DNA of 64,000 nucleotides, taken from contig JAYWIR010000004.1 in the NCBI GenBank assembly GCA_036172245.1, positions 3,720,001-3,784,000 on the forward strand, read 5' to 3'. Source of the stretch: Raillietiella orientalis (taxonomy: Eukaryota). Position numbers and translations under genes: made by a program. Below the pieces are notes generated by a model. That model saw only the letters and a list, made by a program, of their open reading frames with translations, had not been told where the DNA came from and made no database searches. Shown piece by piece: positions 17,901-56,776 of this stretch. The first letter of the stretch is position 1. Every line of letters begins with the position of its first letter.

Positions 17901-20900
17901 GCAAGGAATGAAACGCAGTCAGACATTTTGGATCATTTCGTGACAGCTGTACCAGGAGGCATGACATCTTTCGCGGCTACATCCAGAAGGCAAAGTATTG
18001 ACGATGGGTGATGGACATCCAAGGGACTCCCAGATTGGAGTCGTTGTCACAACCTAATCTCGTCCTGAGAAGAGGGGACCGCGTCATCATACTGGAGACG
18101 TGCTGTCCACTCCAAGACACACCAGCAGCATTCGAGGAGGCTTACAGGGGGAAACAGGGCGAATATCGGACTGGGGCCGCGCACTCTCCCTCGCCCTCTC
18201 AGCAGCCCAAGCGCCAGTTCGTGCGAATGGTCGTCGGGTCAGTGGGAGCTCGGGATCCACAGAACCACGACGTCCTGAAGGGGATGGAAACCCCTTCAGC
18301 TCTGAGGGAACGGAGGCAGCACCTTGAATGAAGAGGTCTCGGATCCTTCATCGACTTCATGCTCCGTCCATCTTCTGGCGCCCGTGCAGAGTTGCGAAAG
18401 TTTCTGTGTTCGCGGAGAAAACCCGCTGGTGTCATCCGCGAGGACCAAGTGTTGGAAGCGTGCACCAGCCCCATGACTGCCACAGTCATCCGAGTAGCGT
18501 TGCCCGATCGAAGTCGCTTCAATGACCCATCAGCGGTTCGGGCTTGCTACCGTGTGGATCGACGTACGTCTTTGAGGCGAGCTTGCGTCTACTGGCAGGA
18601 TCAGCCAGCAAGACATCAATGCCGTCCAGAATATGTCCACTAGGCACACCCTCCAGGTGACTCAGCTCGGACCTCCGTCGTCGAGTCTCCTGGTCCCCAT
18701 TCTAATGTGAAGAACTCTGTTGCATGTCTGGAGGCCATCCATCCTATGGCTTTCCCTTGTTTTGAATTGTGGATGCTTTTGGTCGAGACTGACGCATCAC
18801 GGAATCGGAGCTTGGAAGAGAAGGGGAGATGAAAGGAAAATGATGAGGATTTTGGAAAGATATGGTAAGAAATTCAATCATAGTAGCCTTCGGAAAACAA
18901 CACGTACGTCTCTCGAGCAGTGGATGGCACTTCTTTAGCTTTCACAGTGGCACAATGACGACTGGAGTGGTGGCAGACAAACAAATGGAACAAATCTTCA
19001 TCTTGCAGATTTCCAGCAAGCGTGCACATGCTACTTGTGGTAAGGAAGGCCTCACTCAACAGCAGAGGAGACCCAGCAGTAGAGATCAGAGGCTATAGGG
19101 AAAAGGTGAATCCGTTGGGCAAAGCTCAAGAACCGAAGAGCTAAGCAAGCTTTGTGGAGTATGAAGCGATCACCAGAATAAAACTGTTCAAAAAATAGAA
19201 AATTCGTCGTCATGGGTTTTGTTTCACTGTGCAGAAATATTCTTCTTGTTCCGGATAACAGTTTCCGTGGAGGCATCAAATTGGGGAGAACAGTAGATGA
19301 ACTCTTGAACACGAGCACGAAATTAGAAGGATTGTTCTCACTCGATAGTTTGAGAAGTTGGACTTCATTGGAAGTTCGCTGGCTGCGTGTGGCTCTAGAT
19401 GGTGTGAACGTGAACCACTGATTTTGCATGCTCGATTCAAGGACCACGAGGTTCCCTTAAGAATTTGTTGGTGCGTTCAAGAAAGAAAAAGCTGTTCACT
19501 CAGCACTGTTCGTGATACAGATGATAGGCAAAAAGAATTATTGCGACAACTTACCTCATCCTTTTGCCTGAGTCACAAGAGCATGGTTTGCTTCGCATCT
19601 TGTGTGCTGATCGGAACAACCTTCGGAATGTGAAGGAAGTTCGAGTTGGCTCGCAAGAACGGTTTGGTTTTCCCCTCCCTCAAATTAAAAAAAAAAAAAA
19701 CTTCAAAGCTCTGATATCCAATTTCAAGTCCAGGGCATGTCTTCGGAAATGGGTTTGTTTCAGCACCGAGTCCGTTTTCATTAAGCAAACTTTTAAAAGC
19801 AAACTCGAGAACTTAATTTAAAAAACATCCTCAATTTTCAGAATTTCATTTATTCGGAATTTTTTCTTCCGTGGCGCTATGAATGAATGAGGCATTTTTT
19901 CCGCAATCTGCGTAAAGTCCTTGAGGAAGATTCCAGATCAGATCAAAGCAGGGTCAAAGTGTTTTTCAGAAGTCAAGATATTGAAATCAGGCACTATTGC
20001 TGTTTCTCACCCGGATGCACCGAGGCGTTTATTTCTAAATTATCCAGGAACAGAGTTCCCGGACAAAGGACACAGAAGAAACGAAGAGGAGGATTCCCGA
20101 CACGCAGGTCGGTAAACCGAAAGTCCGGAACGGGAGGGAGGGGACCACAAATACACATATAAAAAATAGAAATAAAGATATGGGGAGGGTAGGGGACAGG
20201 GGACTTTGGGTTGGCCGTTCCTTTCCTTCACAACCGGCTATGGATGCCGGTGATCTCGCTCCTAACGTCTTCTGGAAGATGGGTCCACTCGGCAGCCGAC
20301 GCCATGTTCACGCCGGCTATTCCGGTGGCCTGACGGCGAATCGCCAGCTTCTCAGCTCTCGGTGGGCCTTGTCGATGGCGCGGATGCAACAGACCGTTGT
20401 GATGACAGCACCTAAGGACAGGCCGCCTGGTGTGAAGAAGCGGCGCATCAAGTCTTTTGCGGTGTCCCCCTGGTGCAGGAGAGCTGAGGCCAGTCTCTGC
20501 CACAGTCCTTGGAGGACACCGTAGTCCAAGAGCAGGTGCGGGAGCGTTTCCACGTCCCCGCACCGTTTACAGTTCGGGGAGACAACTCCCCCGGAAACAC
20601 GGTTCGTGCACTGGTTGGAGTGAAAACCCCAATGCAACCAGCATGATGACGTCCTGTTCCAGCTCAAAGGAAACACAGAAGTGTTCAAACAGGAGGGAGG
20701 GACCACAAGTTCTTCGGGGGACACACTCAAATGTTCGCTCTACCGAGAGTCCCTTCGGGATGTCGCGAGGCGTAGCGGCGTCGGCCAGCTCGCAAGTCCT
20801 CCAGCCGCCTATGGGTCGGGTTGTTCCTGCGATGGTGCAGGCGACCTCTAACCTCGCCAGTAGGCAGCTGTCATCGGCAATATTGCTGTCGTCATGCTGC

Positions 20901-23900
20901 ATAGACCCACTTGCCTGCACATATGAAGTCACGGCGGTCAGGTCAAGCGACCAATGAAACTCATTATCAAGTCAAGCGAGGCATTACCTTTCCCCAAATT
21001 GGGGTGATCCAGGCGATTCTTTAAGCATGGGGAGGAACCACGTGCCTCCATGGAAACGCAGCTTTAAATTAGTTTTGAACAGAATCCTGTAGCTAATAAA
21101 AGACGAGCTGTTCCGCCTTGTTCTTGAAACTCATTCATTAGTCTTTCTGTGTTCTTCTGCCGTTATTATAAACTGTTTAGCGTTAATCAAACTGAACGAG
21201 AAAAAAGCACCTGTAGGTAATTAGCATCGTATTAATTTAGGACGTGAAGGCTTGACAACAAAAAGTCCCAGCTGATGTGATTTCCACTTGCTATTTGCAG
21301 CTGAATCCACATACGTTATCTTGAAAATGGGGTTTCTGATGGAAGATCCAGAAGAAGAAGGCAAAACTTGTAATTTTCCCAAGCTGGAAACACGAGCATG
21401 AGTGTTCAGTCACCACCGAAGGAATGGGTTCAAATGCAACCTTGCATCCTTATTGAGCTGTTTTGCGTTTGGTCCCTCTGGAAGAAGGAGGCATAGGAGA
21501 GACAGCGCGTTACATAGACTTGTTGTCGTTCTAGATACATGTAAGAAGAGTCCCAGAGGCGACAAGCTGCGGAACAAAGTTCGAAGCATCTCTCCCTCTG
21601 ACAGGCCAAAGAATCTCCCAGTTTTCAATCAGGTCGGCTGCTCCTTCACTTCTTGCAAGACTGTAAGGGCTGGAGTTCCAAGCAAGTAATCTGTTTTCTT
21701 CGAATGAGAGCGCAAGTTAGTTAGGTATTAGTGAATTGGTAAGCTATCTGGTGCACTGATAACATTACGTTTGGTGATTTCGTAAATGATTTAGTAATAC
21801 ATTTGAACAGGAAGCTGACAAGTGACGGACAAGCTCTCATGTTATGACTTCAGTAACCGCCCTGGAAAAATGGTACATCGATCTAGTCACACAGTGGAAC
21901 TCTAAAAGCACATAAATGCAATTCCCTGATGCCGTAGTACCTAAAGGTAGCAGAGGATTTTTCAGTCTGCAGAGAGGGAGAGGCTTCATGGAGGGTCTGA
22001 TCTGAAATGACGTAGATCGATCGATATGAAATCAAGGTTTTAGCTAAAATCAGGTTCAATTCCAAAGTCTGCAACTCTTTTCAATGAGCAAAGAGCATCC
22101 ACGAAGTCAGCAATTCTCAAGGACTCCGCACACAGCCTGATGCTCCCGATTTTTCAATTTGTTTTTGGAAGTTTTCGGAGGATTCTCGTTCGCATCTTCG
22201 GAAACAACGTCGTACTTTGAATCAAACTTCAAAGATCTGCCTCAAGAGAAGGCACGCAAAGTTGCCGATGCATCATTCCATTTTGCCTCACCTCCTTCCT
22301 TCTCAACCCGTTCTTCACATAGTCCTCGTTAGCTAAACAGCTGATTTCATCGGATTTTCATACACTAAATCATGCTGGCATGTCTCTGAAAGATTATATT
22401 AAATGTCTCAAGAGCAATTTGCTCTCGTAAAACTGTCGCTTACTCTCAAAATCCTGCTAAAATCCACGAGATTTATCATTCTTATATGCTTCGTTTTCAT
22501 CCAAAGAATAAGAATGGCGAATTTTTCATGTCAGTGCATGTCTTTTGGAGTTACCGTATTGGCCAGAGTGGGAGCCACAGGACAATGTAGACTATGCCCC
22601 TGGAATCTTCGGGGGACAAGTAGGAGGGAAAACGACTTCCTGCGGAGAAATCGGACCTCATTTTCTCATATAAATCATTATTGTAAATACTGATATTAAA
22701 GTACAGTAATGTTACTCTTTAAATACTAGTACATGACACATAATATAAATGCATTCTTCAGTATTAAATTTGACGAGTGACTGTTCAAACATCATCTAGT
22801 AGAAACTCACAAATCTTTCTGAATGCAAGATACTCCGCATCTCAATTTTTAATGCGGAAACTTGGGAATGTACTGGAATATTCCTGAATAGTGTTCCCAG
22901 TGCTCTTTTTGATATTTTTTTTTTGGTGAGGAATTGAAAGACGAAATTATTTATCCATTCTGAAAAATCGAAAGACCCAGTAATTTTGGTGCACTCATTT
23001 CTTAGGACACGTTGGGGAACATCTGAAGAAATGGCACTAGGTGTAGCCAAAACTCATCTGGATGAGAGCAACTGCTATCGTTATCGTCAGAAGACCATCC
23101 AAATCAGAGTCAAACAGAATCCAGCAGATGTTGAGTCATCTACAAAGGATGGTGTATTTGTTGGTCATCTAATCTTTAGTAATTCACAGGAGCAGCGCTC
23201 GGTGAGGAGCCATCTTTACCAACATGACAGTTCAAATGAGAATGTGCGAATGGAGTTTCCCGTTGCAAAAAGAACAAGAACTTTGCAACTTTAACAAGTT
23301 CTCCTTAGCTTGCCAGATTCAGCTGCTCCTCGGAATAATTGATCCCGACAAGCCATAGAAATAATAATTTTTAATAAAACACAAATAGGGAAGAAACCAA
23401 TTTTATCTGCAGCATCTTATTCCATCTTCAAGATTTGTTCCGTAAAAAGTCCGAGTTTCTGGAATCACTGCTAATGCATCCTTGAGGGGTGATGGAGAAA
23501 TCAGTCTAAAGTCTCTCAACAGGTTAGAAGCCATGTTTTCTGGAACGCTGATGCTCACACTCTTGGGATATGTTAGTGAACCAGTGGGCCAACTTTGGTA
23601 GACAAAACCGGCACTGCAGCATGAACCGAATGGCTCTGGGCTATGATGAGAGAGAGATGCGACACGCTCGCCAGATCTCAGGGGAGGTGATGGCTGCTTT
23701 GGACGGCAGGATTGTGTCAACCATGGAAGTCTCAGTCTTCCAAGGAGTGCAAGACAGCTCTCCTGCCCGTGCACCCGACCCTATGGCGAGTGGTACTCTG
23801 GCGCCGGGGGACGACATCCAACCGCAAGGGTACTTGCTCATCTGAGACTGCACTATTTTGATTGAAGAAATGAGCAGTTTGAGAAAAGGTTTATCCAGAA

Positions 23901-24660
23901 ATGAAATGACAGACTAAATCATGTCTTCACGGCAGATGGAAGAGCGAATAAATGTCAGGGTGGTGAAAGGAGAGTGAATTCCGCTTGCTTAGCCGAACTC
24001 GAACTCCCCAAAATAGCAGAAAGCACTTTGCAGGAACCGAGTATATCTTTGCACTGCTTTTAATATCTAGATTTTTTGTGTGCAAGCTGAAGTGTGTTTC
24101 TTTTAGCAGCGTCATTGAAATGCTAAGTAACATGTGATAGATGAGTAGCCAAACTGTTTCAAACAGCCCAAGAAAAACACGGTTCTCAATAACTCGAAAA
24201 TTCCCAACATTGCTTCAACTTATCTTTCTCGGTGCAGCCACGAGCTTGTCATCCTGTATCTCACTAGCAATCTCGGTAGCAGTCAGTGTCAGAGCTGATA
24301 TAGCATTCGGATGCTCCTGCTCTAATTTTTGCAACGCCCTTGTACGGCAACCAATTTAGACATTCATTTTCAGCTAAATAAACAAGGGAGAATAGGGGGG
24401 TTGTACGTAGATTCTAGAAACCAAGAGGCCTGAAGACACATGCCTCTATGGATGCTAGCTTGGAATGTAGATTCTCCGAGTGATTTATAATGAAGTGTTG
24501 ATGCAACGGCATAATCTGATTTTTGTCGGTGCTACTTTTCAGTAGCATCGACAAGTCATCAAGTACATGCAGACTCCATCCTGCTGCTTTGGCCTTCATT
24601 TATGGGCTTCCGTAAGATGCAGATGCTCCATCATGCTTTGCCAAATGCCTTAAACTGAAC
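5990..24660 (-). CDS. Putative intron-rich host gene(s), scattered short exons, product unidentified
   Basis: AG/GT-flanked open segments on the minus strand: 6816-6917 (VDLHLLSGDK...FMQTL, followed by a 32-nt GT-AG intron at 6784-6815), ~6270-6376 (LKRGYERAKTQSE...), ~12815-12920 (VKLRDDCWLK..., donor GTAAGT), ~24240-24338 (ALQKLEQEHPNAISAL...). I could not assemble a continuous model. Confidence 0.3.
7993..8488 (-). mobile_element. 5'-truncated LINE (3' ~500 bp) with target-site duplication
   Basis: Minus frame LTQVHVLTCPRLLRDW is the tail of the ORF2 CCHC finger. Flanked by 26-nt direct repeats at 7967-7992 and 8489-8514 (3 mismatches). Ends AATAAA-ttca-CCCCaCCG caagt CGGaccGGGG-aaa. Confidence 0.7.
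8643..9046 (-). repeat. Inverted copy of decayed LINE segment 39283-39686
   Basis: Reverse complement aligns over 404 bp without visible indels, roughly 92% identity by eye. Confidence 0.9.
10150..10600 (-). mobile_element. Possible LINE ORF2 remnant (post-RT region)
   Basis: TERHLKETSFVRKDSGLPWKKVLYGNFSKTKKRNDWG resembles the R.F.W...W...PK..GG.G block. Confidence 0.3.
15330..15880 (-). mobile_element. LINE RT remnant
   Basis: ORF 15432-15884 has PQGGGSFYFICLCPKPL (~RQG..SP.LF...EPL), LEIKTSVI and FLKYLEIY (~KYLGI) in the correct order. Confidence 0.55.
16260..16624 (+). repeat. Direct copy of 621-985 (internal RT part of the decayed LINE)
   Basis: 365 bp; I count 4 substitutions. Shares the stops and frameshifts of the source. 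Confidence 0.95.
17880..18370 (+). mobile_element. Remnant of RLE-encoding non-LTR element (R2/NeSL/Utopia-like): CCHC plus restriction-like endonuclease
   Basis: NETQSDILDH (~ET..HIL.HC), TRRHD, QPNLVLRRGDRVIILETCCP (~RPDLV...II.DVT.P), AFEEAYRGKQGEY (~AF..A...K..KY), VVGSVGARDPQN (~VVG.LG.WDP.N), SRILHRLH. Confidence 0.75.
20004..20875 (-). mobile_element. 5'-truncated copy of the 59790-64000 LINE family, with intact 3' end
   Basis: Reverse complement matches ~63287-64000 (CKRCGDVETLPHLLL, 3' UTR). TSD ggca(c/a)tattgctgt at 19990-20003 and 20876-20889. Confidence 0.95.
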
Positions 24661-25169
24661 ACATCACTTCCTTTTTCCAGTGACGACTTCAGTTTGTTGG
24701 TTTTCTGCAAAATTAGAAGAACACAAAATTAGGAGTCCGTCTTTCGTTGGAGCATCTAACGTTGTGGTTATGCTTCAGAGAAAAGATCCGGTCTTTTTCG
24801 CCTTCCTTCATCCAGAGAGACAGAAGTTTTATCCTCCATATTGGAGATGTGAATTTCATGCTAAAAGTAGGTCATTGCAATATAAGTCCATTTTATTGCA
24901 GGGAACGTAATCTCACTTTGTAGAAGAAGATTCATTCCTACTTCATTAGGAATTTTATTTGTTTTGGCTTTCAGGGTCATTGCAACAAGAGTTGGATCTG
25001 TACCGTTGCATGCGTTCATTTCCAATGCTTAGTATATCATATTAGCTCCATCTACAAGCCTACGTATGCACGCCTTAATGATGAGGCACGCTCATGGAAC
25101 CTTTCTCTTTGGAGACCAGTAAAGTAATTACGTCCTTCGAAAAGAAATTCTCGATTTGAAAGCTACCAG

Positions 25170-31100: not shown

Positions 31101-34100
31101 CCGTTCATTTATGAAAAATAAATCCAACACTACAAAAGTGTCAGAACTCGTCTGACGTTAGTCTACCGGGAACCCTCAACGTGAGCAGCACGTAAAAACA
31201 GGGGGGGGAGGAGATGGAAGATGGAGAGCAGAAACTAGGAATGAATAAATAAATGAGGGAGAAGCAGGACTGCTCTCTCGGTACCGGATGCTTTTGAGAG
31301 AACCAGCACGTGGACTACGACGGGGCGTGCGAGCTCAAGAACTTTGCGTGCGCGCGCAGTCACATCCTCCTTGGGAACCCTCCAGGTTCCAGCTCGGACA
31401 CGGGGTCACTTTATAGCAGTTTCGTAAAAGCGATTGAGGGCAACGAACCTTCTGCTTTGGGAGTGATGCTCCCCTATCATGCTGGTGCCCGGCGCCAAGG
31501 CTCGCACTCTACCGAATGGGGTCAGCATCAGTGACATCATGGTACGCACCGCCACTTCTCGGAGAATGTGGAGCACCCACCCAGCTCTACAGGGTTTGTG
31601 CTGGAGGGACTCGATTGGCTCGCAGTACGCACATCTCGTGGGGATGCACCCTACCCCCCTCCCCTAAGGGAGCAGCAAAGTATACTTCGTTACGAAGGAG
31701 ATCCAGCGTGCTAGTAGAACTGCTGCATGCTGGCCGATTCCTGAGAAATGCTCCTACCAGCGCCTAGCAACTCATAGGGAACCGAGAACTTCCAAAGGGT
31801 TCCTCGGGAATTCCCAGCGCTCCTCTCATCCTTGCAACTCTCCATGCCTCGCAGACGACTTGGGCTGTGCTCCAATGAGCAGTTTCCTAGGTGACCATCC
31901 ACGAGAGGGGGATTTTTCTTTTTTTTTGAAGTTTAAGAGTTGCTTTCCTCTCGTAGAAGGAAGAAGTTTCCAGGGTATATGCAAAAATGGTGGGATACGC
32001 CTCAGAAGAAGCTACTCCTTTCATCGAGGATCTCCCATGAGTTAGGACCATTTCCAGGTGACCCTTGCACCAAGCGAGGGAACTTTTGCTTTGGCTGGAT
32101 CGCCGTTCTGTTCGCGGCTTCCTTCTGTCAGACTTGCTTGCTTAGTGGGAGACAGTGACTCGTGTCGCACCCAACCTTTCATCAGATTCGCTCAGAAAAA
32201 GCCACTGGACCTCAGGCTCATTCCACTACGGAGTAGGGGAAAGAGTATGCCCCCTAAACTGGAAGGTGGCTCCGATAAGGGCGATCTCCAGAAAAACTGC
32301 CGCGAGCTCTGCAACTTCTCCACGAGCAAGCGGTTCTGGAGAAGGGTGTCTGCAGTTCCACCAAGTGCGATGGCGTAGGGTCCAAAACAGGAAGCAGGTG
32401 TTCAGGCCACACCTTAGGGCTGGACTGCCCGCTCTAGAACCGCATGACTTAGAGGCACGTTCGAGAAGAGACGGAACAAGAGGAAGAGGGGATCTCGAGG
32501 GCATTCCACTTTGTTGATCTTTTGGGCATAAGGATCCTGCCATCCCTTGTTCACCCCTTTCTCTGTGCCTCAATCGGATCTCTCTTGGCGAGGGAATCTG
32601 CAGACTACACGTCTTGGATCGATACTTCCCAGTCGTCTCTCCACACTGGGATGTGGCTGCAATGGCAAGTGATCCTCATCCACTTCGAACTCAGGAGGTT
32701 TTTCTATACGCCTAGTGGATGACTAGCCGATTCGTTCCGTATACATCGCGCGCATTGCGCCTGAACCAGACAACGGAGCGTCCCGTCAGCGGTCACATCC
32801 TACCCACGTATAGTCGCGGCACTTCCGACAGTTCCTCTCAACAGCTCGTCGTTTCGAGGAGGCCAAGAACCTAACGAGTCGAGGCGCTCGGCAATTCGCC
32901 TCTCTTCCACCTGGTGCTCCTGAATGATGAAGAAGCGCTTCAAATGAGCGAGAGACAACCACGATAATCATTTGATTACTTTTCTGGAGGAACATGTCAG
33001 GACGAAGATAAGAGCCCACTCCAGGGATCGGCTTACTTCGAGCAGTCAGCTCCCACGCACCTCTTGTTTCCCCTTAGGCACACTCCAACCAATCCTCATG
33101 GATGTACAGATGGAAATCCAGTGGCTTCGCCGCAAGCAATGGCTTCGTACACGCGGCAATGCCTTCATCCCGCACCTTTCACTGCAGGAACGGTAGGCAG
33201 TCGCGTCGGAAGCCATGTGACTGCGCGCGCGGTGCCAAGCGTTGAGGGTTCAAATCTCCACGGGGAGGATCAATGCCAGAGAAATGGGGGTGCATCGTGG
33301 GTTTTGAGCCCTCCCCCCCCCAGGATGACTCTTGTTGGCTTGTGGGTTTCGGGTGCGGCCCTGGTGGACACCCGGTCACGCCGGGGCGTTTATTTATAAA
33401 AAAATAAACACACGTCTGCGGCAGGACTTTTGATCCTGTCACGTTACTTATAACTACGAGAAGGAACCCTCAGGGAACTGGCACGCAGACCAGCGGGGTT
33501 CATCTCGGCAGCACAGGGGGAGGGGAGACAAACAAAAAGAAAAAAACAAGACAGAAAACATAGTCAAAAACATGGGGGGCTTCGGGAAGGGATCACCGTG
33601 TTCTGGAGAGTATCCACTGCATCCTTGTAAAGATGCAGGCAAGTTCCTGTTTTATGGTTCCCAGATGGGGTCATCTTGATGCTATCCTCACGAAGAGGAC
33701 AGCAAAATAGATGACGTTCCTGTCGTTTTGGCCCTTCTGGTGTTGCTCCATGATGCCATGATCCCGCATAGGCAGCGCAGCGCTGCTAGGGATGCGGCCG
33801 GCGTGAGGGCGTCGTGCAGGCAGAGGCGCTTCTGAATGTCTCTTGGGTTGCTCTCGGAGTTCCGCAGGGACGCGGCAAAGCGTTCCTACAGGGAGCAGGG
33901 AGCCCCACAATCCATGAGCAGGTGAGGGAGGGACTCTCTTTCTCGGTACCTGCTGCAGTTGGGGCTTACACTCCCCCGGGTCCAATGGTGTAGGCGGTCG
34001 TTGAACAGGCAACAGCATCAATGCCGACTCCTGCCACTTCAAAGGGAGGATGCAACACTGGTGGAAGCCGGAAGGCAGATGCCCCGTTGACCGTCGAGAT

Positions 34101-37100
34101 TAAAAGTTGTACCGAAGTCCTTCAAAGAATCAAGGAGTCAGTTCTCCCCGGCTGTGAAAATAAAACCGCTCCCCCCCCTCCCCTCACCCAGAGGGGACTC
34201 TCCATCATGTACCATGGAGCAGGTTGATATCCTCTTTCAGGGTTCGCCACTTTAGAGTGTCAAGAAGCGCGCTCCTTGTTGCTCCTATCCAGAGGAGCAA
34301 CCAGGAGCAGATCCATCCGAGGAAGAAATTTCACGCGCGGATATTTTTTCCAGGTTCCCTTCGAAGGAGGAACGAGGAGTGACACCTCCGAGGGAGTCCT
34401 CCGGAGGGAGTAGGGAGGAGGTTCCAATTCGAGGTTCCCTTCGGAGACAACCAGGGCAAGGGTTTCCTTCGGCATTCCCCACAGAGCGTGAGAGAAGGAA
34501 TGGAATCCTTCTCCGGAGCCTTCCTGAATTCATGGGGTGGTCCCTATGGGATTTCCCCTTAATTTGAAGAGTTCCACGCACCCTCTGGTGGCACGGACAG
34601 AGCTAAAGAGCTCCGTGAGCCTCCCTTAAGGAGGCGGACGGTTCTTCAGTACTAGGTGAACCCCAAAAAGAAAATCCACCCAAAGAAAAGCAGGAAGAAA
34701 AGCAACAAAACCAGAACAAAACAGACAGAACAAATCCCATCATACGAACATTTCATCCTTCCTCCTTTGCCTCAGTGCTTCCCTCTTTAAGGGACGCAAG
34801 GGACAGCGTAATCCGGGAAGGTGAGAAGTCAAATGCATAGAAGCAAAGGAGGAAATATTGGGGGCGTGGACAACTCGGGAAGCTGACGGACTCTGCGACC
34901 TCGAGTGCGATACCTCCACGGACTCGTACGCTGGGGAGAGCTGTTCGACATCCCTCTGGAGGAGGTGGAGTGGCGCTTAGCGTGGTGGAGCAGTGGCGTC
35001 GTCCACCCTCAACCGGCAAGAGTCGGCGTTGCTTGTTTCATGGGGAGATCCTGTGCAAAGCGCGCCTCCACCACTGCACACGGGAAGGCTGGAAGCTCAG
35101 TGCGACCGGTGTAGGAAGAAGGAAACCCTCCCCCACCTGCTGTTCGATTATGCTGCCGTCCAACCCCTTTGGGATCGTTTCGTGGCGATCCTAGGTATCC
35201 CGGCAGGCGGACCCAGGGACATTTGCAAACATCTCTTCGTGCCTGATGCCACACTGCCTCCAGCCGCGTCCCTCGCAGTTTTCTACTGTCTGCGAGGGAT
35301 CATTGCGGCCTGGAACGCCAGAAGAAGAAGCCAAAAGGGCAGGAATGCCATCCACTGGACACGGATCTTTCAGAAGACCGCTTCGAAACGTCTCCACCCG
35401 AGATACGAACGGAAGTTGCCGGCATCCTGAATAGGATGCAGAGAACGCCGGGAAGCGTACTGTGATCCCTTCCTCGGCTCCCTTCTTATGGTGTGAAGTT
35501 TTCCCTCCCCTGTTTCATGTGTTTCTTTTTTTTGTTTTTGTTTTCCCTTCCCGCACGCTGCCGAAGTGGACGTCGCCAGTCTGAGCACTGGTCTTTGGTG
35601 GTTTCATCGCACGTGGTAGAACCCTTGGTTCTACCACACTAATATATTTTTGTTACCTTAAGTAAGCAACGCACCGGCATAACCGGGTGATAATAATCAT
35701 CCGAACAGGAATGGTCTTTCCCTTTTGTTCGGGATGCTAGGAGAACAGGAAGGGGATTCAGCAGGACAAAGGGAGCAAACCGAAGGTCACAAACAGGATG
35801 ATAATCTCCGCTGGCGATGAGCTGGTACAGATCCTATGGAACCCAGCACAAGACACGGTTTTACCCTGGTCAGCGTGCTTCTCAATTGGGAGTGTTATGC
35901 TACGCTGCGCCGGAGGGTCTGGATATCGATCGCCGCACCGAATATGTAGTCGCTGCCAACAGTACGAGGGTTCTCCTCTAACCAACGTCCATCTCGACTT
36001 CATCTGCCATGAGGCCTCCCACTCCGAGTCGCCAGCCATTCTACTGAATCCTCCCCACATCTCCCGAGATAGATTATCGTTACATTCCATATCAGCTGGA
36101 GAAGTTATAATCCCCTTCCTTACTACGGAACGTAAAGTTGGACGAGAGGATTCCAACACTGTCTGGTCCCTTGAAGTTTAAAAGAGCAATAAATGGACGG
36201 GCCCCGTCTGTCAACTTAACGAGGTCCAGGGATTCCTTCTAGGCCTTCCAGAAAATATTCATTTGATGCTCGATTGGACAGACGAAGGCACTTCTTCACC
36301 ACCGGCCTAATATTGTTTCCTGAAAGGAGATGAGGTCGATTTTGGCAACCAGTCTCCTTTAAGGAAAATCCAAGTCTTTGTAAATGTAACAGGCTGAGGG
36401 AAGAGAATATCTTTTCCGCGTTGCTCTTAAGCCAAGTAGATAGAACTTTATCTGGAAGAAGAATCAACAATGACCTCGACCTTAGCCACTGTTTTCTCGC
36501 TTTACCGGCTCGGACTGAAACAATTCCAGCTCCAGCGCTTCTACAAATGTTTGTGGGCTTCACCAGGCTGGAGACAAGTGAAGCTGATAGTGAAGACGCA
36601 GAGCTAGGTGTACGGCACCACTTCGGAGTCCTGCGGCCAATTGCCGAGTAGCTTACTTTCGGGAGTTCATGGAGAGTTCCACGGATGGATCAGATAATGT
36701 TGACCCATCCGCAGAATCTGACGAAAACAGGAAGCCATCAGCATAAGTAAATAGCTAGTCCCTACCAAATGAGGCTCGTAGCCTGAGCAGGTTGGACCCC
36801 ATCGCGATATTAAAGTAAGGAGCTTATGGATCACTCTTGCTTAATTTTCCCCCAAATCTTTATATTCCTCATCGATTGCTTCTTGTACGAGACCAGCACA
36901 GACGCATTTCCATACGAGTTTGTGATGCTTTCGATGAGGTGGTACCAAACTCGTTCGCAAGATTTGTGAAATGCGATCCTGGTATCGTCAAATCGGATCT
37001 AAAGAATGAAAATTTTCTCTAGGACAGAGTGAAAAAGGGATAAACCCGTTCTGTGAAGTGCCTTTAATAATATGCTTCGAAGTTCCATTTCCTGACCAAG

Positions 37101-40100
37101 AGCAGCTGATTCTCTGATCCTCAAGCTGGTCCAGCTGTCCTCGAGAGCAACTTTTCGAGGTCATCGTGAGCAAGCCATCGGAAGCAACTTCCAACCGAAC
37201 TAATGAGCCCTTCACTACTAGCAAAAGCATCTCTTCAAATCAAGAATGATCTGGGTCCAGATGGGCTGCCTGCAGAGTTTCATGACCTTTTTGTAACAGA
37301 TCTGGCAGTGCTGGTGTCAAAATTACCACTGCTGATGCGGGAGGCAGACCAAGTGCCTGCCTACTTCAGTCAGTCAGGATTCGTGTCGTACACAAAAAAG
37401 GAGACCCGCACTGCCTGGGCAGCTGGCATTTGAACACGTCTGTAAACGCGAACGTTAAGTTGCTATTTAGAGCGTCAAATAAATTACGCAAAGATGGTGC
37501 GGTTCATCATCGGAGGACACACCAATGCTGTACGGGACTGAAGTATGGATGCTAAAATTCCCTTGCCCACACCTGGTTCAGGGTGTAGAAGAGGAAGATA
37601 ATTCCACCCTCAAGGGATCTCGATCTATGTCGAAAATCTAGCGCAGGATGCTACCACAGAATGGAGGACTGCCTGCTGCAGTCGATCTGCAAAAGACCCT
37701 CAGCTAGATCGATCAGGGGCTCTTTCTTAAGCCTCTAGAACGGCTCAGCTCGCTAAGCATCCTCCTGAACTTGTTATCTCTATGGAGCAAAGAGTCAAGT
37801 TTTCCGCTGATCTGCTCACCCGAGGCACTGAAGCTAGACGGGGCAATCAGACAAGAAGACAGTCAAAGTCCCAATGCTGTTCAGCCTGTTTTTAGGACGT
37901 CTATTTCTCACGACAAGTCTTAAGCAGTGGTCTATGATGACCACTCGTTTCTCCTGTTGCTTATACAGAGCCCAGCAGCCGCACTTGGAACGTTGATTGA
38001 GGTTCTCTCCAGGAGTGCTGCCGTCCAGATGAATAGATCGTGGTGTCCTCGACGAAGAACAGTCTGAGTTCAGTGTTGTCTCCGATCACCACGATGAACA
38101 CCGGACGTTGGGAATCCTCGCGAGCAAGGGTGGTCCCTGATTGGGGGCCCACATGGTTCTCTCTCTCCGAGAGGGATCTGGTCAGCTTTCTTGGAGAAAG
38201 AATAGTGAGTTCGGGTTTCCTTTCACAACGGCAGATCCATTTTGGCCGGAAGGGCAGCATGCTGGAGCACTTTCGCTGCTCCCATTTAGCGTCTCGTCGT
38301 TTGATGCTTCTCTTCTTCTCCTGAGTGTGCTGACGAGTTACAGGGATGATATGGGGCACCACCAAATCCCAAGACCGCGAGCCCAGACCCGATCCCCTCT
38401 CGAAGATGCCGACTGGAATTTGTTTTTTGCTAAGACACGAACGAGTTTTTTGCTAAACACGAACAAAGTTTTCCTCTCCTCGCCATTGAGGTGCTGAAGG
38501 GAAATAACGAGTAGATATTTCGCCCAACAGAACAAGAGTAGACATGTGGATCCTCCTGGAAAAATTAGCTTTTCTCAAGTGTCATTAGAATTGAGATTCG
38601 CTCCTTTGAAAAACTCCTTCGGAGCGACCTTGGATAGCAGGAGTCTGCTTCCTGAGGCACGTGACGAGACCATTCGAGATGCCATGAGATTACGTCTGTC
38701 AGAGGGAAGAGTTGGATCCTCCTGCAGCGTGAGGGCTGACCTATCGGATCACTAGGATCAAAAGTGCATCAATGAAGAATACAATGGAGAGAGAGGCAGC
38801 TCACTCACAGAGGCATGCCCGCGAAATCCTGCAAAGGTGGATTGTCTTCCTTGGAATTTCTGGAGAAAAATTGAAGATCCAAGGTTTCCTGAAAAATATC
38901 CTCATACTTGCTTCAAGCTACCAGCACAATGGCATTTTGCTGATGCGATGAGTGGGATTTTTCCCACCCAGCGTATTAGCCGAAGCCGATCTCCACCGTG
39001 CATTCGCGGGGAGATTTCCAAGGATTCTGGATTCCCAAGAGATTGCGCACTGTCGGAAACCTCATGCACGTCTGCAATACAGAAAGAATACAAAAGAGGT
39101 CAAATACAAAAGAGGCTATAGTAGAGCTGGGATCTCATCACAAAGGCTCTCCAACCATCCAACGAGGCGCTCTGGGACCATATGAGAAGAATGTTCACCT
39201 CTTCAAGCTTGCTAGCTGTATCCTTGCTGACGATTTTCTGCCTCTTAAGAGCAACGGTGGCTTCCAAAACGGAAGAGGAAGCTCGATTCGAAAGCAGTTC
39301 GAAGCCATCAATGCTGTCAAGAACCTTCTCGAAGATGAAGGAAGCTTTGGGAATCGTCGTTCCTTAATCCCTTGATCCAGATGTCTGCCAGCTGCTTGCT
39401 GTCCATATCTTCATGGTATTCGTGACGTTTCTTCTTCTTTGCAATTCATGACGCTGCTCAAACAATGCTTTTCTGCCGCTCAAGAGCAGCCGAGGATTCT
39501 AAGACGAAAGAAGAGGAAGAACTAAGCCGTCCGAGGAAGCTGGTCACGATCAATATGCGTACTGGGATGAAGTCATTCAAACGGGAACCCTCGATCAGAA
39601 GGAGGAACCTCAGGACAATTGTGGACTGATCAGATCGTACGTAACCCCTGATGGAGACCCAATTCCCCTTCTCCCGTCTCCGCACGGTACAGATCACGTT
39701 CAACACCGTTAGGCCACACCCATTTATTCCCCCTTTCTTCCACATCTTCCGTTTCTCATCCAGTCGTGTCCCCGGTGAGGTTCGCACCTTTTCTTTTCAA
39801 ACCAGAAAGTGGTCCTGGGTCCAGCGAGCGATCAAACACTTCCCGATCTGCCCCGGCCCTACGCCGATAGCGTGAGAGAGAGTTCGCGGCTCCTTCCAGC
39901 ATCGCATGAAGCAGAAACTTCTGTTGGGCGACCCCCAGGTCAGCTGGCGATTCGATGCGCCAGAGCGGATCGATGCGGCAAACGTGAAAACCCCTCGCAA
40001 CGTGCGTCTATCGACGGGCAGCTCCGGTTTTTGGGCGGCGGCCGAGCAACGGAAGGGTGAGCTTCCATGGGAGTAACCGAACGAGCGCGCGAAGAGGAGC

Positions 40101-43100
40101 TGCTGTCTCGGCCCCGCCAACTCGACGTCGAACTCCACGAACAGAGATGGAAGGAACCTCGAGGGCGGTGTGCTGCCCGAGTGGGGCGCGTTCCTTCGGG
40201 TCGAGCTGCGTGGGAAGTGGGCTACCAAGTGAAGGTGGAGAGGAAGCGGGGTCGAACTTTGTTGATGAGCCCCATCCCGGGAGCGCCGGTTCTCCTGCTG
40301 AAGAGATTTAGAATTTGAGGGCAGCATGATTGACAGGAAAGCTTTTATCCGGTGACTCCGGGACGTTTACTTAAAAAATAAACCATAGTTCAGTGTTCAG
40401 AATACAAGAGATTCTTCCCCATTCCAAACAAAACAAAACAAAAAACATGAGTTGATTGGGGGTGACCACCAGCACAAAGGCGAGCTTCTAAAAAAGCGGG
40501 GAGCGAAGGGAGGGAACAATCATAAACGAAAAATGTCGGGAGGTGGGGGACAGGGAGGTCTTTGGATTCAGTTGTTCCTTTCTTCCTAGAAGAGGCTGTG
40601 TGTGATGGCAATCTCACTGAAGAATTCTGCGAGATGAGACCACCTTGCTTCTGTCTTCATGAGGGCTGCTACTATGCTGGTGGCCTCTCTGCGTCGCAAA
40701 ACTGGCTCAAACACATGGCGGACTATCACCATAGAGATTGTTGCTATCACAGCGCTCTTCTTCCGACTCCGGTGAGGAAGCGTCTCAGAAAATCCAGAGC
40801 AGTGTCCTGTGATCAACGGAGCGCCGAAGTGAGTCTCCGATACATATCCTCCAGGGCACTGCAGTCCAACAAAAGGTGCGGGAGCGATCCAATCGCCCCG
40901 CATCTAGAACAGTTCGGGGAGACAACTCTCCCGGAAACCAGTGTCTGCTCTGATTGCACTGGAGTCTCCACTGCAATCCCCAATGCAGAAGAGGAAGAAC
41001 ACCCCGTTTCCAACGGAGGTGTCCGCACACAAGGAAGGGACCACGAGTTCAGGACACACCGAGCACGTCACTCCACCTAAGGAGTCTCTTTTCCCGGAAA
41101 CGAGGAATGGCGGCGTTCACCAACTCGCTCGTCTTGCAGCCGTCCAGGAGTTTTTCCACTCCTGCAATGTTGCAGGAAAACTCCTATATCCGGTTGGCTG
41201 CCGATTTTGTTTGTTTTGAGGGCACAAAGTGCTCCGGCAAGGGATGTGATGGCCATCCGGAACCACTGAGTCCAATCCTGAAGGACATCTCCCAGCTGTT
41301 TTCCTAGGAGATTCTGCAGTGATCGCAGTTCCTCTGAGCGCACTTCCAGAGTGGCAACCCAGGACTCCAATGTCTCCTGCCTCCAGGCGTTCCAGTTTTG
41401 GTAATGGCAGGAGATCTATGGTTAATTAACCAAAAGTAAGGGTAGATGCCTCAGAAGGTAGTCAAATCCAGTCCTCCTATGTGGGCTGCTCAGCAGCATC
41501 GAAAGAAGTCCTGAGCTTCCAGCGCATCGCCAGAGGATGAGGTGTGCCGGAGCACACCAATGGGATGACCACAATTTTTCACAAAGAATCAAAAGTCGGA
41601 ACTGCATCTGTAGTCCGATCTTCGGATGAGACCTGCAGCGGATTTGCAGCGGATGGTCAGGATGACCAAGCCAGCATCATGCGACGGCGCCACCAAGTCT
41701 TTCAGTCGGATCCGGGACATATGAGCGCCCCACAAAATTCTTCTTATTAGGCGCAGATCCCGGAACTTCAGGGGTCAACAGGAAGAAGGATGTGGAAATA
41801 GTGAAAACTCTTCCTCCATTCTGTCACAGACTCGGTAACTTATTTGTGTGAAATGAATGAGACGGCCTGACGATTCCATAGACTCGCCGAGGCCTGCCTC
41901 CTGTTTGTCACTCAGCTTTGGTCGCGTGTTCTTCAACACGTCGCTCGCCTGGTCGGCGCGTTGTTCGTGTGACTCGAACAGAGTTGAGGAGGATATCAGT
42001 ACAGTACTTTACCTAATGGAAAAAAAGATGAAACTTATGAGATCTTATGCTGAACCAAGACAACGATGTGAATCAATGGAAATTTGCATCCAAATGACGC
42101 GAAGAAGCAGGATGCATCTTCATGTTTCAAAGATAGCTTGTTCTCTTAGTGTTCTTATTTTCTCATCATCTTTAGATTGGCATCTTATCAAAGCAGAATC
42201 CGATGTTTTTTTCTACTGAAACACTGAGCTGCATATTCTCTGCCATTAATCTTCATCATTATGCCGCAATGAGTGATCTCTTTGAGCTGCTCCATCATGC
42301 TGATGGTCTTAGTAGAATACTGGGTAGGAATGTTGTTGCTAGAAGCCCATTATTTCTTATGCTCATCGCAGTTGCGTTTCTGCAGTGATAGGCGCTCCTA
42401 TCAGAATGCTGATGAGGAAGCAAAGGAAACTGAATGTTGGCTCATTCAGGATCTTCGAGTTGAAAGCATAGCCACGAAGTATTGAAAACCTTCATCGGAA
42501 TCATAAGAGATCAGAGCCATTTTGCTGTTTCCTTGGATTTTTCCTACATTTTCTGATTTTTGATCTTTCAATGGTGCGGCTGCAAGCGGAATCTCATTCT
42601 TTCTTACGTCTAATCACTCTCGATACGGGAGAAGGCCCTTGGAACGTCAATCAGCTTAATAGCATCCAAGTTGGCTGCCATTTTAAAGTTCCTACTAAAC
42701 TATCCGCGAAGATATCACGGGAACTCTTCAAAATGGAGATGTTGGCTCAGGATCTCTGACGTGCCCTCAGAGAGAGCGAGGGAGAAAGAGAGAAAAGGAA
42801 GCTTCCTTCAGGACTCATGTGCCTCTGAGATCGCATCGCAAAGCGCAGTTCCAGACTGGGGTCTGTTGCAATTGGAAGGGGAGACGTGGCTACCAGTACT
42901 GCGCATTTCTGCGTAGCCCTAGAGACTCATCCGCTTGTATGGACGTCGTGAGCATTGGCCGTCTGATTAACGAGATGTGGACGTGTTCCTTCTCGGATGA
43001 CTTAAGGTGTAGGAGGCTGCGAGGGGGGTTACTGAATTGAAAGTGTGAAATTAATATAGCTCAACTGTGCAAGTGGCTTGATGAAATGAAAGAACGACCC

Positions 43101-50100: not shown

Positions 50101-50149
50101 CCGAGGAATTCCTGCTCCGGAGGAGAGCTCTGATACTGGGGACAGTTGT

Positions 50150-53100: not shown

Positions 53101-53500
53101 CCGCGCGGAATGGCCAGCGTGGGTGCGCTTGTCCCGTTGCGGGGGAGGTTTTGGGCTTGGCCCAGAAAGCTCCGACGTCCTCTTGTTCTTGGAATCCTTT
53201 CTGAGCAGGGGAGTCTTCGGCAAATCGGTGGAGGAGACGGCGACATCAGAAGAGTAAAGAGGGTGGAAGAGTTGCACACCAATCCTTTTCCATTTTTTTC
53301 CGGTCGCGTGCCGCCTCTCACAGCCGTGGTGCGAAACGTCCTTCTTTTCCTACTGCAAAAACACTTCCTTCTCTAAGCTCCGTCCATCTCCTCACGATCC
53401 ATGGTCACCGCTCGTTTGCTGTTTCTGCAACAGCAGTCCATTTCCGGTTTCCCCTTCGTGGACGACCCTTTTCCCGGTCACCTGGTTACGTGAATTCTCC
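50150..53500. promoter_or_regulatory. CpG-rich, promoter-like region
   Basis: Visibly GC/CpG-rich with no convincing ORF. Palindromes tccggaaatttccgga (50671-50686) and cacgcgcgcgtg (50699-50710), ATTGG at 50226, TCTCGCGA at 50716, and gtgggaccac three times. Confidence 0.35.
50165..50240 (+). ncRNA. Candidate (imperfect) HDV-like ribozyme fold
   Basis: Order P1 cgagcg / P2 gagcta / P3 gca / L3 tcttcgt / tgt / tgctcg / ag / P4 caatccg-ccat-cggattg / gctaa / tcgctt. Has mismatches, a C at position 1 and a long J1.1/4. Confidence 0.2.
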
Positions 53501-53612
53501 ATGACACGAAGTCCGTTTGACATCTTTCGCTCCAGAAGGCACAGGAACTGACCTCAGTTCTTGTCGATCTGGACCCATGCTCTCCATAGGACTAGGAACT
53601 CCTAACTTTGGT

Positions 53613-55900
53613 TTATCATCCGGTCACGCCGGGACGTTTATTATAGAAAATAAACATCCATGTGAAGAGTCATCGGCCCTACATTGTCCGAAAATGCTCA
53701 GAACCTACCGAATAACCGGCACGAAGGCCGACGGGGTTCGCCTCGGAGGAGGAGGGGGGAGAGGAGGGGCAAACAAAAATAAAAATAAAATAAAAAATCG
53801 ATGAAAACAACTCTGAGGGGCACGGGATGGGATCTCTGTCCGCTGGATGGCGTCCTCTGCATCCTTTCCAGGATGCCGGCAAGTTCCACCCGAGTGCACT
53901 CCAGGTGGGGACATCTTGCTGCCGTCCTCATGAAGCGCAGGCCGAAGCAGATGGCGTCCCTATCGCGCCGTCCTCCTATCGCGTAGCTCCAGGTCGCCAC
54001 AATCCCTCGTAGGTAGCAGCAAAGAGCTGCTAGGGATGCGGCAGGCGAAAGGGCATCGCGCACGAAGAGGAGTTTCATCACGTCCCTGGGGTTGTCCAAT
54101 CGTGCATCAAGGGCCGTTGCGTAACGCAATCACAGGGGCAAGAGGGCACGACAAGCTGGTGCGTGAACTGGGATTCCCGTTCCCCGTGCCTGCAACCGTT
54201 GGGGTCCATAGCATCCCGGGTCCGGTGGGAGCGGCGGGAGTTGCACGAAAGACCCCAGTGCAACAGCGGAAGTGCCGACTCCTGCCACTTCAAGGGGAGG
54301 GCTCGGTTGTTCTTCAGCGCTGGGCCTGTCACTCGAGGTCTTTCTGTGGGATTGTCACCTCAGCGCAATAGTCCTTTCGGTGGGACACTTGGGATCGCAG
54401 TGTCCATGATCTGGCCCGTGGTCCAACCTAATTCCTTCGCTCTTCCTCCGATCTCACATCGGACCTCCCATTCGGCCGGCTGGTTGCTGCCCAGGTGCTG
54501 AGGGAGAGCAGTGCCGTGGCTAGGTGCCGAGGTTCTTTGTGTCCATGCACACATGGTGGGCTGCATGATGGCGTCCTGCAGCGAGCGGTTGTTGTAAAAG
54601 GAGTGCAGCAGTCGCTGCCGCATCTCTGGGCTCGCTCCATTCTTGGCCCATGTGCGAACGGTTTCCTGCAACCAAGCATTATCGTTCGCGAATGGGCAGA
54701 AGATACTTTTGTTGGTGCTGGTCAGCTTGACCAGCCGCCGGAGCTCCAGTCCGAAGCGGGACACGTTGCGTCTGCGCCTCTGTGCCAGCAACGAATAGAG
54801 TCCCGCATAGCCGGTGGTTCGCTTGACCAGGTACCGTGCGGGCTCGCACCAGTTCGTGCTCCGAAGCTTCTCTACTACGGCAAGTGTTCTCCACTGCAGC
54901 TGCCTCTCCAGGCTCTTCAGCGTTGGGAGGCCGAGGCCTCTGTCGCGACGCGGAGAGCGGAAGTTCTTCAGGCGGACTCGGGGTCTCGAGGAATTTGCAG
55001 TGATGATTCGGGCAGGTGTGCACTGCTCGCGCACGCGAGGACGCTGGTCGCCGACGCCTGGTGCATCGTGTTCAGGACATCCACCATCGCTTCCCGGTGA
55101 AACGTGCCGCTCCGCTGACAAAGCGAGCCCTCCGCTATGAAGGAAAGGCCCGATGCCTGGGAGATGCCTGCTCCCTATCCGCTCCATGAGGGAAGAAAAG
55201 GGAGAGGGAACTAAGTTGGAGCGACAAATCACCTGGAGGCGCTTGTACTCCTGGTTGCATTGTGTTCCTGCTGAGGTGGAAGAGAGGAGATCCTCCCTCC
55301 TTTCCCACTGTGCATGACTGTGAGCCCCTCCTCCCTTCCGTCTCTCCCGCCCATACCATCCTCATGCTCTGCTCCTTCCTACCATGCATAACCCGCGCTT
55401 TCCGCCTCAGGGGAAATCGCTCCCGGCACGAGTTTCCAGACTCCTGCGCGATACTGTAAAAGCGGCAATTGAAGCTTTTCAGGAAAAGTGCCGCTCCACA
55501 GGTGGTTTCTCTAGCTACCGGCGAGAACCAGGTCACAGGTTCCACTGCTAACTCTGGTGCCGCGCCGCACACCAGCAGCTGAGGTGGAAGAATGGGGAGC
55601 GGCAATAGAGTAAAAACCAGGGGTAATCGGCCGAGAGCAAGTTCCATCTTATCTCCTTCTGTCTACCATCACCAAGGAAAAGAAAATCCCTTAGCAAGTG
55701 AGTCCTTACTCTCACAAAAAGGTTCGGACAGAGGACATCGTGGGTTGAGCCCTAAGAGGTCACTGTTCGGGATGGTCTGAGGGAAATGGAGACAGGAATG
55801 GATAAGGTGTGGTACGGATATGCGGGAGAACCTCCTTTGAAGTTCACTAATTTCGCCAGTGGATCCAAACGAAATGAGAAGCGGATCCGAGGAAAAGATC
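53613..55900 (-). mobile_element. LINE 3' portion (RT remnant to 3' end)
   Basis: RVRLKNFRSPRRDRGLGLP, KLRSTNWCEPA, AWLQET, LPLKWQES, LAGILERMQ are collinear with the full ORF2. Terminal hairpin at 53620-53632. Confidence 0.85.
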
Positions 55901-56420
55901 AGGAAAGGACTTTGCTTCATGCAACTCCCGGATGCATGAGATCTACTTCATCTCTCTTCCCGAACGATTTTCCTCTCCAGTCTCCCGGAATCATTCCTGT
56001 ACCAGAAAGCTGGAGGCCCCAGCCGCAAGAGCACCGAAAGTAGCGGAGGAGGTGCTCAGGCCGCGCACCCGGAAAGAACCGCTTGCAGCTGAACATGGAG
56101 GAGTTGCCACGGAAGAATCGCTTTTTGCCCATCCAGCGCGCACGAATGACGGCAGCGGTGTGCGTCGGAAAGCTCCGAGAGATCCTCTGTTCACTTCGAA
56201 TCGTCGGTGCCCCTCCTGGACCCTCTACCCGATCAGCGCCTTTTTGTTAAATGAGTCCAATCTCTGAGGGCCCTTCGACCTGCGGGCTGCGAGGTCCCGC
56301 ATATCGAATCGTCCCCGCAGCTGTTGCTGGACTGTGATGCCCTTCAAGAATCCCGTGGCGTAGGCTGGCTTCATTGCTCCTGCACCCGGAGGGCATCTAC
56401 TCTGCAGCAACCTTCCGCAG
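55900..56420 (-). mobile_element. Possible LINE ORF1 remnant
   Basis: FRRTPLPSFVRAGW, then MFSCKRF...RCSCG after a frameshift: gag-like knuckle pattern. Confidence 0.3.
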
Positions 56421-56439
56421 CATGTTAGGATGTTGAGCT

Positions 56440-56776
56440 CAATGACAGATGGTCACGCTCATGGCAGTCACCTGCATGAGGACGGAGGCAAGGTGACCCC
56501 ATTTGAAAGAAGTCATCAGGGAAATTCTCTACACCTTGCGCTGATTCTGAGAAGGAGGGAGGTCACCAGCCAAAAGATCCCTGACCTCATCCTTCCTTTT
56601 CTCTTTTTTTTATTTATTAATTGATTGCCCCTTCCCTCCGGAACTTCCTCAGTTACTGATCTACGTGTCGGTGACCCCTCTTCATGAGCTTCTTCTCTTT
56701 CCCTTTGGGAAGTCGGTCCCCAACTTGTGCATTTTTTTCTCTCCCTTGATGAATGCCCTGGATCGACCGGCTGTAA
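56440..56776 (+). mobile_element. Short decayed LINE 3' end
   Basis: MRTEAR*PHLKEVIREI..LR*F* matches the ORF2 terminus MTSVAEWAYLPEDVRSEITGIHSRF. The UTR matches that of the 20004-20230 copy (ctgat-ctacgt-gtcgg) and ends gaatgccctgg-atcga-ccgg-ctgtaa. Confidence 0.7.

Follow-up and report, generated by a model that had tools for sequence, protein, structure and literature searches.

A 64,000-nt stretch of contig JAYWIR010000004.1 of Raillietiella orientalis (the window; its letters are displayed from position 17,901 to 56,776) contains several small hairpins that have different stems around nearly the same six-base loop and lie in 3′ untranslated regions (UTRs) that belong to long interspersed nuclear elements (LINEs), which raises the question of whether the hairpin is maintained by selection and, if so, what it does. 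An original prediction listed five such hairpins and took them for a covarying, candidate undescribed RNA module. Comparison of copies from the genome assembly (210 Mb in 491 contigs) shows a fixed position in the 3′ UTR, selection on the stem at the level of lineages, a loop pattern in which the first and fifth bases (C1 and G5) persist, a fixed element end lacking poly(A), and loss of the hairpin in one lineage. Probably the hexaloop hairpin is no ribozyme but a handle for a protein, of a general type already known, that helps without being essential.

Copies of the hairpin and compensation in its stem

On re-reading of the window, all five 16-nt hairpins were found where the original prediction had placed them and on the same strands (Table 1), and a decayed copy of subfamily F that was absent from its list was added as the sixth. 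Each of the five sits downstream of a C-terminal remnant of ORF2 (for the E hairpin, positions 56306-56383 match the ORF2 end at 74%) and its end is 89-109 nt away from the final base of the terminal motif described below, in agreement with the predicted spacing of about 80-110 nt from the terminus. Their subfamilies have 2151, 1293, 432, 858 and 3 first-look candidates, the three being those of lineage E. A 5-bp stem (G-U allowed, at most one mismatch) around CUGCG occurs 30 times in the window versus 13-19 times in ten first-order Markov controls; since the motif alone is not rare, the evidence for the hairpin is positional homology and not the motif. Part of the difference among the five copies is copy-level decay: the 35576 copy has an A-U pair where the subfamily majority has G-C, and the 33478 copy is closed by G-U, in contrast to C-G in most of its subfamily. 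No target-site duplication (TSD) of at least 10 nt was found for the six window copies.

The terminal motif, an AAUAAA-like hexamer followed by a CCGG-N5-CCGG hairpin, has 1504 exact matches in the genome versus none for the reversed control. Copies for alignment were gathered by this motif and were not selected on the hexaloop hairpin: 90 of the first 100 listed matches were used, 30 taken automatically and 60 picked in a way that favoured varied terminal loops. Seventeen rows were left out (nine truncated within or below the module, two with internal deletions, one duplicate, one unalignable and four from a hairpin-less lineage), and the remaining 73 copies were counted on a tree built without the hairpin, in which a change on an internal branch is a lineage-level change.

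In the 5-bp stem, 328 of 361 cells are paired. Internal branches carry five double changes, four one-sided changes that keep the pair, four breaks and two restorations, while terminal branches carry 25 breaks, as expected for dead copies; independent double changes affect four of the five pairs. None of six controls in which the 3′ arm was slid by 1-3 positions gave an internal double change. A separate tool counted 90.8% paired and 61 double-change cells (none of 500 shuffles was as high, and slid arms gave 18.7-44.7%), a home-made test resembling that of R-scape gave the closing pair an E value of 0.006 among 1540 pairs, and RNAalifold recovered four of the five pairs. The claim that the stem letters differ while pairing is kept is borne out by this larger alignment, which shows stem pairing to be kept by compensating changes between source lineages. 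CpG hypermutation or decay was ruled out as the source of apparent compensation, CpG and non-CpG transition rates being alike in five subfamilies. A sixth base pair is not conserved (39 of 73 paired), and one stem base is missing in two rows (L168 and L173).

A loop with constant first and fifth bases

Loop bases 1 and 5 are C and G in 66 of the 73 copies and U and G in three, and internal branches carry five changes at position 6 and none at positions 1 and 5. Between subfamilies, positions 2-4 and 6 vary (CUGCGN, CUUAGC, CUCAGC, CAUAGN). Subfamily H (555 candidates, 25 fetched) has CUUAGC in ten copies, CUCAGC in five, CAUAGC in three, CUUAGU in two and other loops singly, with C1 in all 23 of its intact loops and G5 in 21 of them. 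In subfamily I (279 candidates, of which 25 were fetched) one stem base is missing and the loop reads C(C/A)UAGN; all 25 copies have G5 and 23 have C1. Bases 1 and 5 are able to pair and base 6 is free; it is a pyrimidine in 56 of the 73 copies as counted before two rows were realigned. A constant C1 and G5 beside changing bases at positions 2-4 and 6 form the pattern of a pseudo-triloop, in which C1 would pair with G5 across the loop, three bases would loop out and the sixth would bulge. The persistence of C1 and G5 amid subfamily-wise change at the other four positions is what is new here.

The foamy-virus 5′ hairpin, the epsilon signal of hepatitis B virus (HBV), the iron-responsive element (IRE) and the trans-activation response (TAR) hairpin of human immunodeficiency virus (HIV) likewise have a six-base loop in which C1 and G5 do not vary and base 6 is free (PMC3884659, PMC1636360). 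Nuclear magnetic resonance (NMR) of the foamy-virus hairpin found a pseudo-triloop with a UGC triloop, a C-G cross-loop pair and a U bulge (PMC3884659), and the apical loop of HBV epsilon, CUGUGC, is a pseudo-triloop and a binding site of the reverse transcriptase (RT) (PMC1636360). The commonest loop of the R. orientalis elements, CUGCGU, appears from the text of that paper to match the foamy-virus pseudo-triloop; the form CUGCGC is one base from the HBV loop, and UUA is named the most stable triloop (PMC3884659). Unlike the pseudo-triloops described in these papers, the loops here are closed mostly by C-G or U-A and not by G-C, lie in the 3′ UTR of a non-long-terminal-repeat element and have a cross-loop pair that is presumed from the pattern; the likeness rests on six bases and could be due to convergence or chance. 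Full-text literature searches found no paper pairing pseudo-triloop (or pseudotriloop) with retrotransposon, and nothing on LINEs was among the matches listed for CUGCGU with hairpin.

The end of the element and a lineage without the hairpin

The tail consists of a pyrimidine tract, the hexaloop hairpin, a lineage-specific second hairpin (three of these were found where the original prediction had put them) and the terminal hairpin, with no poly(A). The terminal hairpin is a structure separate from the hexaloop hairpin, with 4-5 bp and a 5-nt loop, and the element ends 3-5 nt past this hairpin and a few nt beyond the terminal motif. TSDs of at least 11 nt were found at 44 of 208 ends versus 0-5 in 20 shuffles; at 39 of the 208 they lie 2-6 nt past the motif (mostly 3-4 nt) and are 11-17 nt long. 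Because the TSDs begin after the motif, it is the end of the element and not its target, and the terminal hairpin was ruled out as a target site. No run of more than five A follows the motif in the 208 ends. The lack of poly(A) and the TSDs 2-6 nt past the motif are what would be expected of an RT that reads a specific tail. The short copies seen are 5′-truncated LINEs. Eight loci in metagenomes have the terminal motif, none of them with ORF2 similarity or the hexaloop hairpin.

In subfamily G (236 candidates, of which 40 scored at 81-100% identity) the loop and the 3′ arm are gone in all 25 fetched copies, which retain the second and terminal hairpins; ORF2 ends were found in 24 of the 25 and TSDs in seven. 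Because subfamily G amplified without it, the hexaloop hairpin is regarded as accessory. The terminal hairpin is present in every aligned subfamily, though often decayed or truncated in single copies, and is the better candidate for the essential signal.

The 3′ flanks of some subfamilies have features of their own. In 13 of 28 subfamily B copies (L031-L060 and L128; window positions 33330-33368) the same sequence follows the element, in a sample for which the query included a few flank bases. This common flank carries further on a motif recognised by eye as resembling an antisense tRNA B box, and it suggests Tx1-style targeting of a tRNA-derived repeat. Target preference has been noted in Tx1 elements (PMC4494074). 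ARAGORN and Rfam found no gene in the subfamily B flanks. At least three of 30 subfamily C copies (L062, L068, L090 and others) are followed by a shared hairpin and T run that resemble the 3′ end of a small RNA and have no Rfam match. The flanks of subfamily G (L242-L266) begin with a short stretch in common, a hint of target preference, and many copies of subfamily I (L292-L316) are found close to the ends of contigs or on small ones, possibly through a subtelomeric or repeat-array preference. A weak match to a fragment of U2 small nuclear RNA (E 0.01, under the gathering score) was noted at L086:207-253 (-).

A putative protein-binding handle and its alternatives

The reading preferred here, at about even confidence, is that the hexaloop hairpin is a cis signal, a putative accessory protein-binding handle carried by the RNA of L1-like LINEs that lack poly(A), akin to the tails of stringent LINEs. 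The pairing of C1 with G5 would create a three-base loop and a bulged sixth base, a shape that a protein would read; the likeliest reader is ORF2p (or ORF1p) of the element itself, which the hairpin would help to hold its own RNA, while the separate terminal hairpin would set the start of reverse transcription. An action at the RNA level, on the sense strand, can be inferred. Precedents exist in the loop-specific recognition of ZfL2 and in pseudo-triloops that serve as protein sites, including RT-bound HBV epsilon (PMC4176376, PMC1636360, PMC3884659). As in stringent LINEs, a compensated and conserved stem-loop lies in the 3′ tail and the end is defined by the tail without dependence on long poly(A). 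A stem-loop that is required for retrotransposition does not fit subfamily G, on comparative evidence; other lineages may still need the hairpin.

Besides the loss in subfamily G, several findings weigh against this reading. Four stem breaks lie on internal branches, the closing pair is the only individually significant one (the second-ranked stem pair has an E value of 0.25), the RNAalifold energy is only -0.65 kcal/mol, and ViennaRNA gives a mean stem probability above 0.5 in only 29 of the 73 decayed copies. Wobble counts favour neither strand (12 sense G-U versus 12 A-C/C-A cells). As regards the loop, covariation of C1 with G5 was never seen, both bases being invariant between lineages; the closing pair in 72 distinct rows is C-G in 28, U-A in 28 and G-C in five; and position 6 is A in 13 of the 73 copies. 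According to the NMR study, a G-C closing pair favours the pseudo-triloop whereas a C-G closing pair or an A bulge abolishes the cross-loop signal, and natural functional exceptions to such stability rules exist (PMC3884659). The C-G and U-A closing pairs, the A at position 6 and the lack of C1-G5 covariation make the pseudo-triloop a supported inference and not a result.

A host RNA-binding protein might read the hairpin in place of an element protein, and stabilise, export or process a transcript without long poly(A); this is a serious contender, though on balance unlikely. It would account for the persistence of the same loop in lineages that share only about 35% identity at their ORF2 ends and for the dispensability of the hairpin in subfamily G, and a common factor has been proposed for the near-identical foamy-virus and HBV loops (PMC3884659). 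However, lineage-wise switching of the loop is more readily accounted for if the loop co-evolved with a protein of the element and not with a single host protein, and the features of the IRE are absent: its loop, CAGWGH, occurs in none of the 73 copies, and three have a C at the place of its unpaired C, five pairs below the loop (definition from 10.1101/524991).

It is rather improbable that the hexaloop hairpin belongs to a larger tertiary fold, whether through an enclosing helix, a pseudoknot, or pairing of the loop with a downstream GCAG or with the terminal loop. The original prediction had drawn a GAACC/GGTTC helix around the hairpin and a possible CCGA/TCGG pseudoknot. The letters are there, the former at the 33478 and 53716 copies and the latter at the 53716 and 35576 copies, where CCGA lies on the upstream side and TTCGG/TTTGG on the downstream side, but conservation of either as a structure is not supported. 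In the 73-copy alignment no double change lies on an internal branch in either helix, although 254 of 318 cells are paired in an enclosing CUGCCG/CGGCAG helix, which includes CCGA/UCGG, and 195 of 272 in a GAACC/GGUUC-type helix; internal breaks number ten in the former and nine in the latter, and both helices are absent from the 18 D-clade copies and from subfamily F, all of which keep the loop, subfamily F having the hexaloop hairpin amid unrelated flanks. Compensated outer helices were seen in two single copies (L129 and L131), and the loop UGC lies opposite a nearly invariant downstream GCA (54, 48 and 44 paired of the 55 copies having GCA). Other registers of the outer helix suit some clades only, and a kissing interaction of the hexaloop with the terminal loop, complementary by eye in subfamily D only, was rejected; terminal-loop sequences vary without matching the hexaloop. 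Given the lack of internal double changes, the nine to ten internal breaks and the absence from whole subfamilies, the outer helices are not the conserved unit; they may form in some lineages.

Still less probable is that there is no protein site on the RNA at all, the hairpin acting on DNA or cDNA or being a mostly neutral leftover in which a few compensations arose by chance. Against this stand the independent double changes, which affect four of the five pairs, and a loop that hardly varies between flanks that cannot be aligned, even though the wobble counts do not fix the strand, the predicted folding is weak, subfamily G has lost the hairpin and the L182 clade shows decay.

Another candidate reading is a self-cleaving ribozyme, resembling that of hepatitis delta virus (HDV) or of a new class. 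The hexaloop resembles the L3 loop of HDV, and the candidate helices follow one another in a strand order like that of a nested pseudoknot. Many LINEs contain ribozymes (PMC6765202), and the HDV-like ribozymes of R2, L1Tc and RTE share with the module a short stem, a C/U/G-rich loop ending in CGY and a retrotransposon context (PMC3774820, PMC6765202). Unlike those ribozymes as described, the module has a 5-bp stem and a 6-nt loop, no P1′ directly after the stem and no P1.1/J4/2/P2′ arrangement, and lies 3′ and not 5′. A loose HDV descriptor, for which PMC3774820 served as a guide to strand order and tolerances, put the hexaloop as L3 in two of the 73 copies, yet it fits somewhere in 94 of 219 shuffles. 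Rfam found nothing in the window at the gathering score and, in 31 loci (18 + 13) at E values up to 0.5-1, only weak matches away from the module; there was no match to hammerhead, twister, twister sister, pistol or hatchet; the original prediction likewise had recognised no hammerhead, HDV or twister. The conserved CA that twister-sister-like cores need in an internal loop (PMC11620745) was not seen by eye in the hexaloop module. The 5′ ends of 39 TSD-defined copies are spread over 34-1647 nt with no pile-up at the module. Unsupported by the descriptor and by Rfam, and implying a cut that would part the priming end from the ORFs where the LINE ribozymes described in PMC6765202 and PMC8501958 are located 5′, a ribozyme is very improbable.

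Comparison with other LINE tails

The claim of an undescribed module holds in that a fixed hexaloop in LINE 3′ UTRs has no match in Rfam, and is overstated in that 3′ tails with a variable stem and fixed loop are known for stringent LINEs, including one L1 lineage (PMC3472496, PMC4176376), and in that the loop fits the pseudo-triloop motif already described (PMC3884659, PMC1636360). Like ZfL2-1 and ZfL2-2 of zebrafish and UnaL2 of eel, the elements have a 3′-tail stem-loop with an exchangeable stem and a lineage-specific loop, and no long poly(A); in ZfL2, deletion of the stem-loop or a change in its loop abolishes retrotransposition, recognition being loop-specific and stem-exchangeable (PMC4176376). 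Unlike ZfL2 and UnaL2 as described there, the R. orientalis elements have an L1-like and not an L2 RT and no terminal microsatellite repeat, and their hairpin is located about 90-110 nt short of the end, with two further hairpins downstream; and whereas ZfL2 needs its stem-loop, one lineage here spread without the hairpin. A monocot L1 lineage has a compensated 3′-end hairpin (PMC3472496, PMC3747384), and this lineage of the L1 clade, 1a with LINE1-1_ZM, shares compensatory stem changes and a conserved loop in the tail (PMC3472496); unlike here, its loop and flank are UCU and CGAG and its hairpin is in the last 45-50 nt. Such tail-specific L1 lineages are rare in the literature, with three pairs of a short interspersed nuclear element and a LINE among more than 800 L1-clade entries (PMC3472496).

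ORF2 and other features of the window

Among solved structures, the window RT matched human L1 ORF2p best (E 4e-18) and R2 with an E value of 3e-14. Named homologues found in protein searches are 22-34% identical, so L1-like denotes a likeness and not a tree result. A metagenome protein without context (P0073) is 58% identical to the window RT. The subfamily D copy that includes this RT has its hairpin just beyond the end of the window, at position 64054, and the ORF2 piece upstream of this RT looks endonuclease-like from its motifs. A further decayed RT remnant (37289-38286, +) is about 30% identical to the main RT. Nested inverted duplications with ORF2 sequence are found at 53876-54704 and 58659-59488 (99%) and at 56065-56296 and 57668-57899 (100%), and two other repeat pairs are unrelated to LINE tails (621-985 and 16260-16624, direct, 99%; 8643-9046 and 39283-39686, inverted, 94%). 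No useful Pfam match to a host gene was found among the 61 ORFs of the window.

Table 1. Coordinates of LINE features in the window
Feature	Coordinates	Strand	Remarks
Hexaloop hairpin, subfamily D copy	20097..20112	-	subfamily stem: 144/150 cells paired
Hexaloop hairpin, subfamily B copy	33478..33493	-	subfamily stem: 134/145 cells paired
Hexaloop hairpin, subfamily C copy	35576..35591	+	121/145 cells paired; loop and one pair deviate from subfamily majority
Hexaloop hairpin, subfamily F copy (sixth, decayed)	40469..40484	-	subfamily stem: 80/99 cells paired; flanks without both outer helices
Hexaloop hairpin, subfamily A copy	53716..53731	-	subfamily stem: 135/147 cells paired
Hexaloop hairpin, decayed low-copy lineage E	56656..56671	+	lineage has 3 matches only
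Second hairpin, lineage-specific	20043..20063	-	9 bp with one G-U
Second hairpin	33422..33438	-	5-bp core
Second hairpin	35613..35637	+	perfect 11 bp
Second hairpin	53664..53682	-	decayed
Second hairpin	56705..56723	+	imperfect
Terminal hairpin and last bases of motif, D copy	20008..20024	-	
Terminal hairpin, B copy	33369..33385	-	
Terminal hairpin, C copy	35673..35689	+	
Terminal hairpin, F copy	40346..40362	-	
Terminal hairpin, A copy	53617..53633	-	
Terminal hairpin, E copy	56757..56773	+	decayed
Two candidate outer helices, B copy	33464..33511	-	arms 33504-33511/33467-33474 and 33497-33501/33464-33468; complementary, covariation not found
Candidate enclosing helix, C copy	35558..35601	+	arms 35558-35565 and 35594-35601, decayed
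Two candidate outer helices, A copy	53701..53748	-	arms 53742-53748/53705-53712 and 53735-53739/53701-53705
ORF2 C-terminal remnant upstream of D hairpin	20503..20878	-	tblastn
ORF2 C-terminal remnant upstream of B hairpin	33901..34002	-	tblastn
ORF2 C-terminal remnant upstream of C hairpin	35014..35169	+	tblastn
ORF2 C-terminal remnant upstream of F hairpin	40843..41780	-	tblastn
ORF2 C-terminal remnant upstream of A hairpin	54171..54989	-	tblastn
Upstream ORF2 piece	60490..61509	+	endonuclease-like by eye; no Pfam match
ORF2 RT and C-terminal region, subfamily D copy	61605..63665	+	Pfam RVT_1, E 5e-23

Implications

L1-clade elements mostly recognise poly(A). A large and varied family of L1-like elements that has three hairpins but no poly(A) in its tail, together with natural loop variants and a natural deletion, allows the direct question of how an RT of the L1 type selects its RNA and what parts of the tail are essential. 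If the loop is a pseudo-triloop, the tails of LINEs would be linked to a protein-docking motif of HBV and foamy viruses. That it is a true pseudo-triloop, C-UGC-G-U as in the conserved foamy-virus 5′ hairpin and nearly the loop of RT-bound HBV epsilon, read by the LINE RT or by one shared host factor, is an unlikely proposition; if it were true, the natural loop swaps (UGC, UUA, UCA, AUA) and the natural loss of the hairpin would supply an existing series with which to identify the reader, and three unrelated groups of retroelements would have converged on one RNA docking motif.

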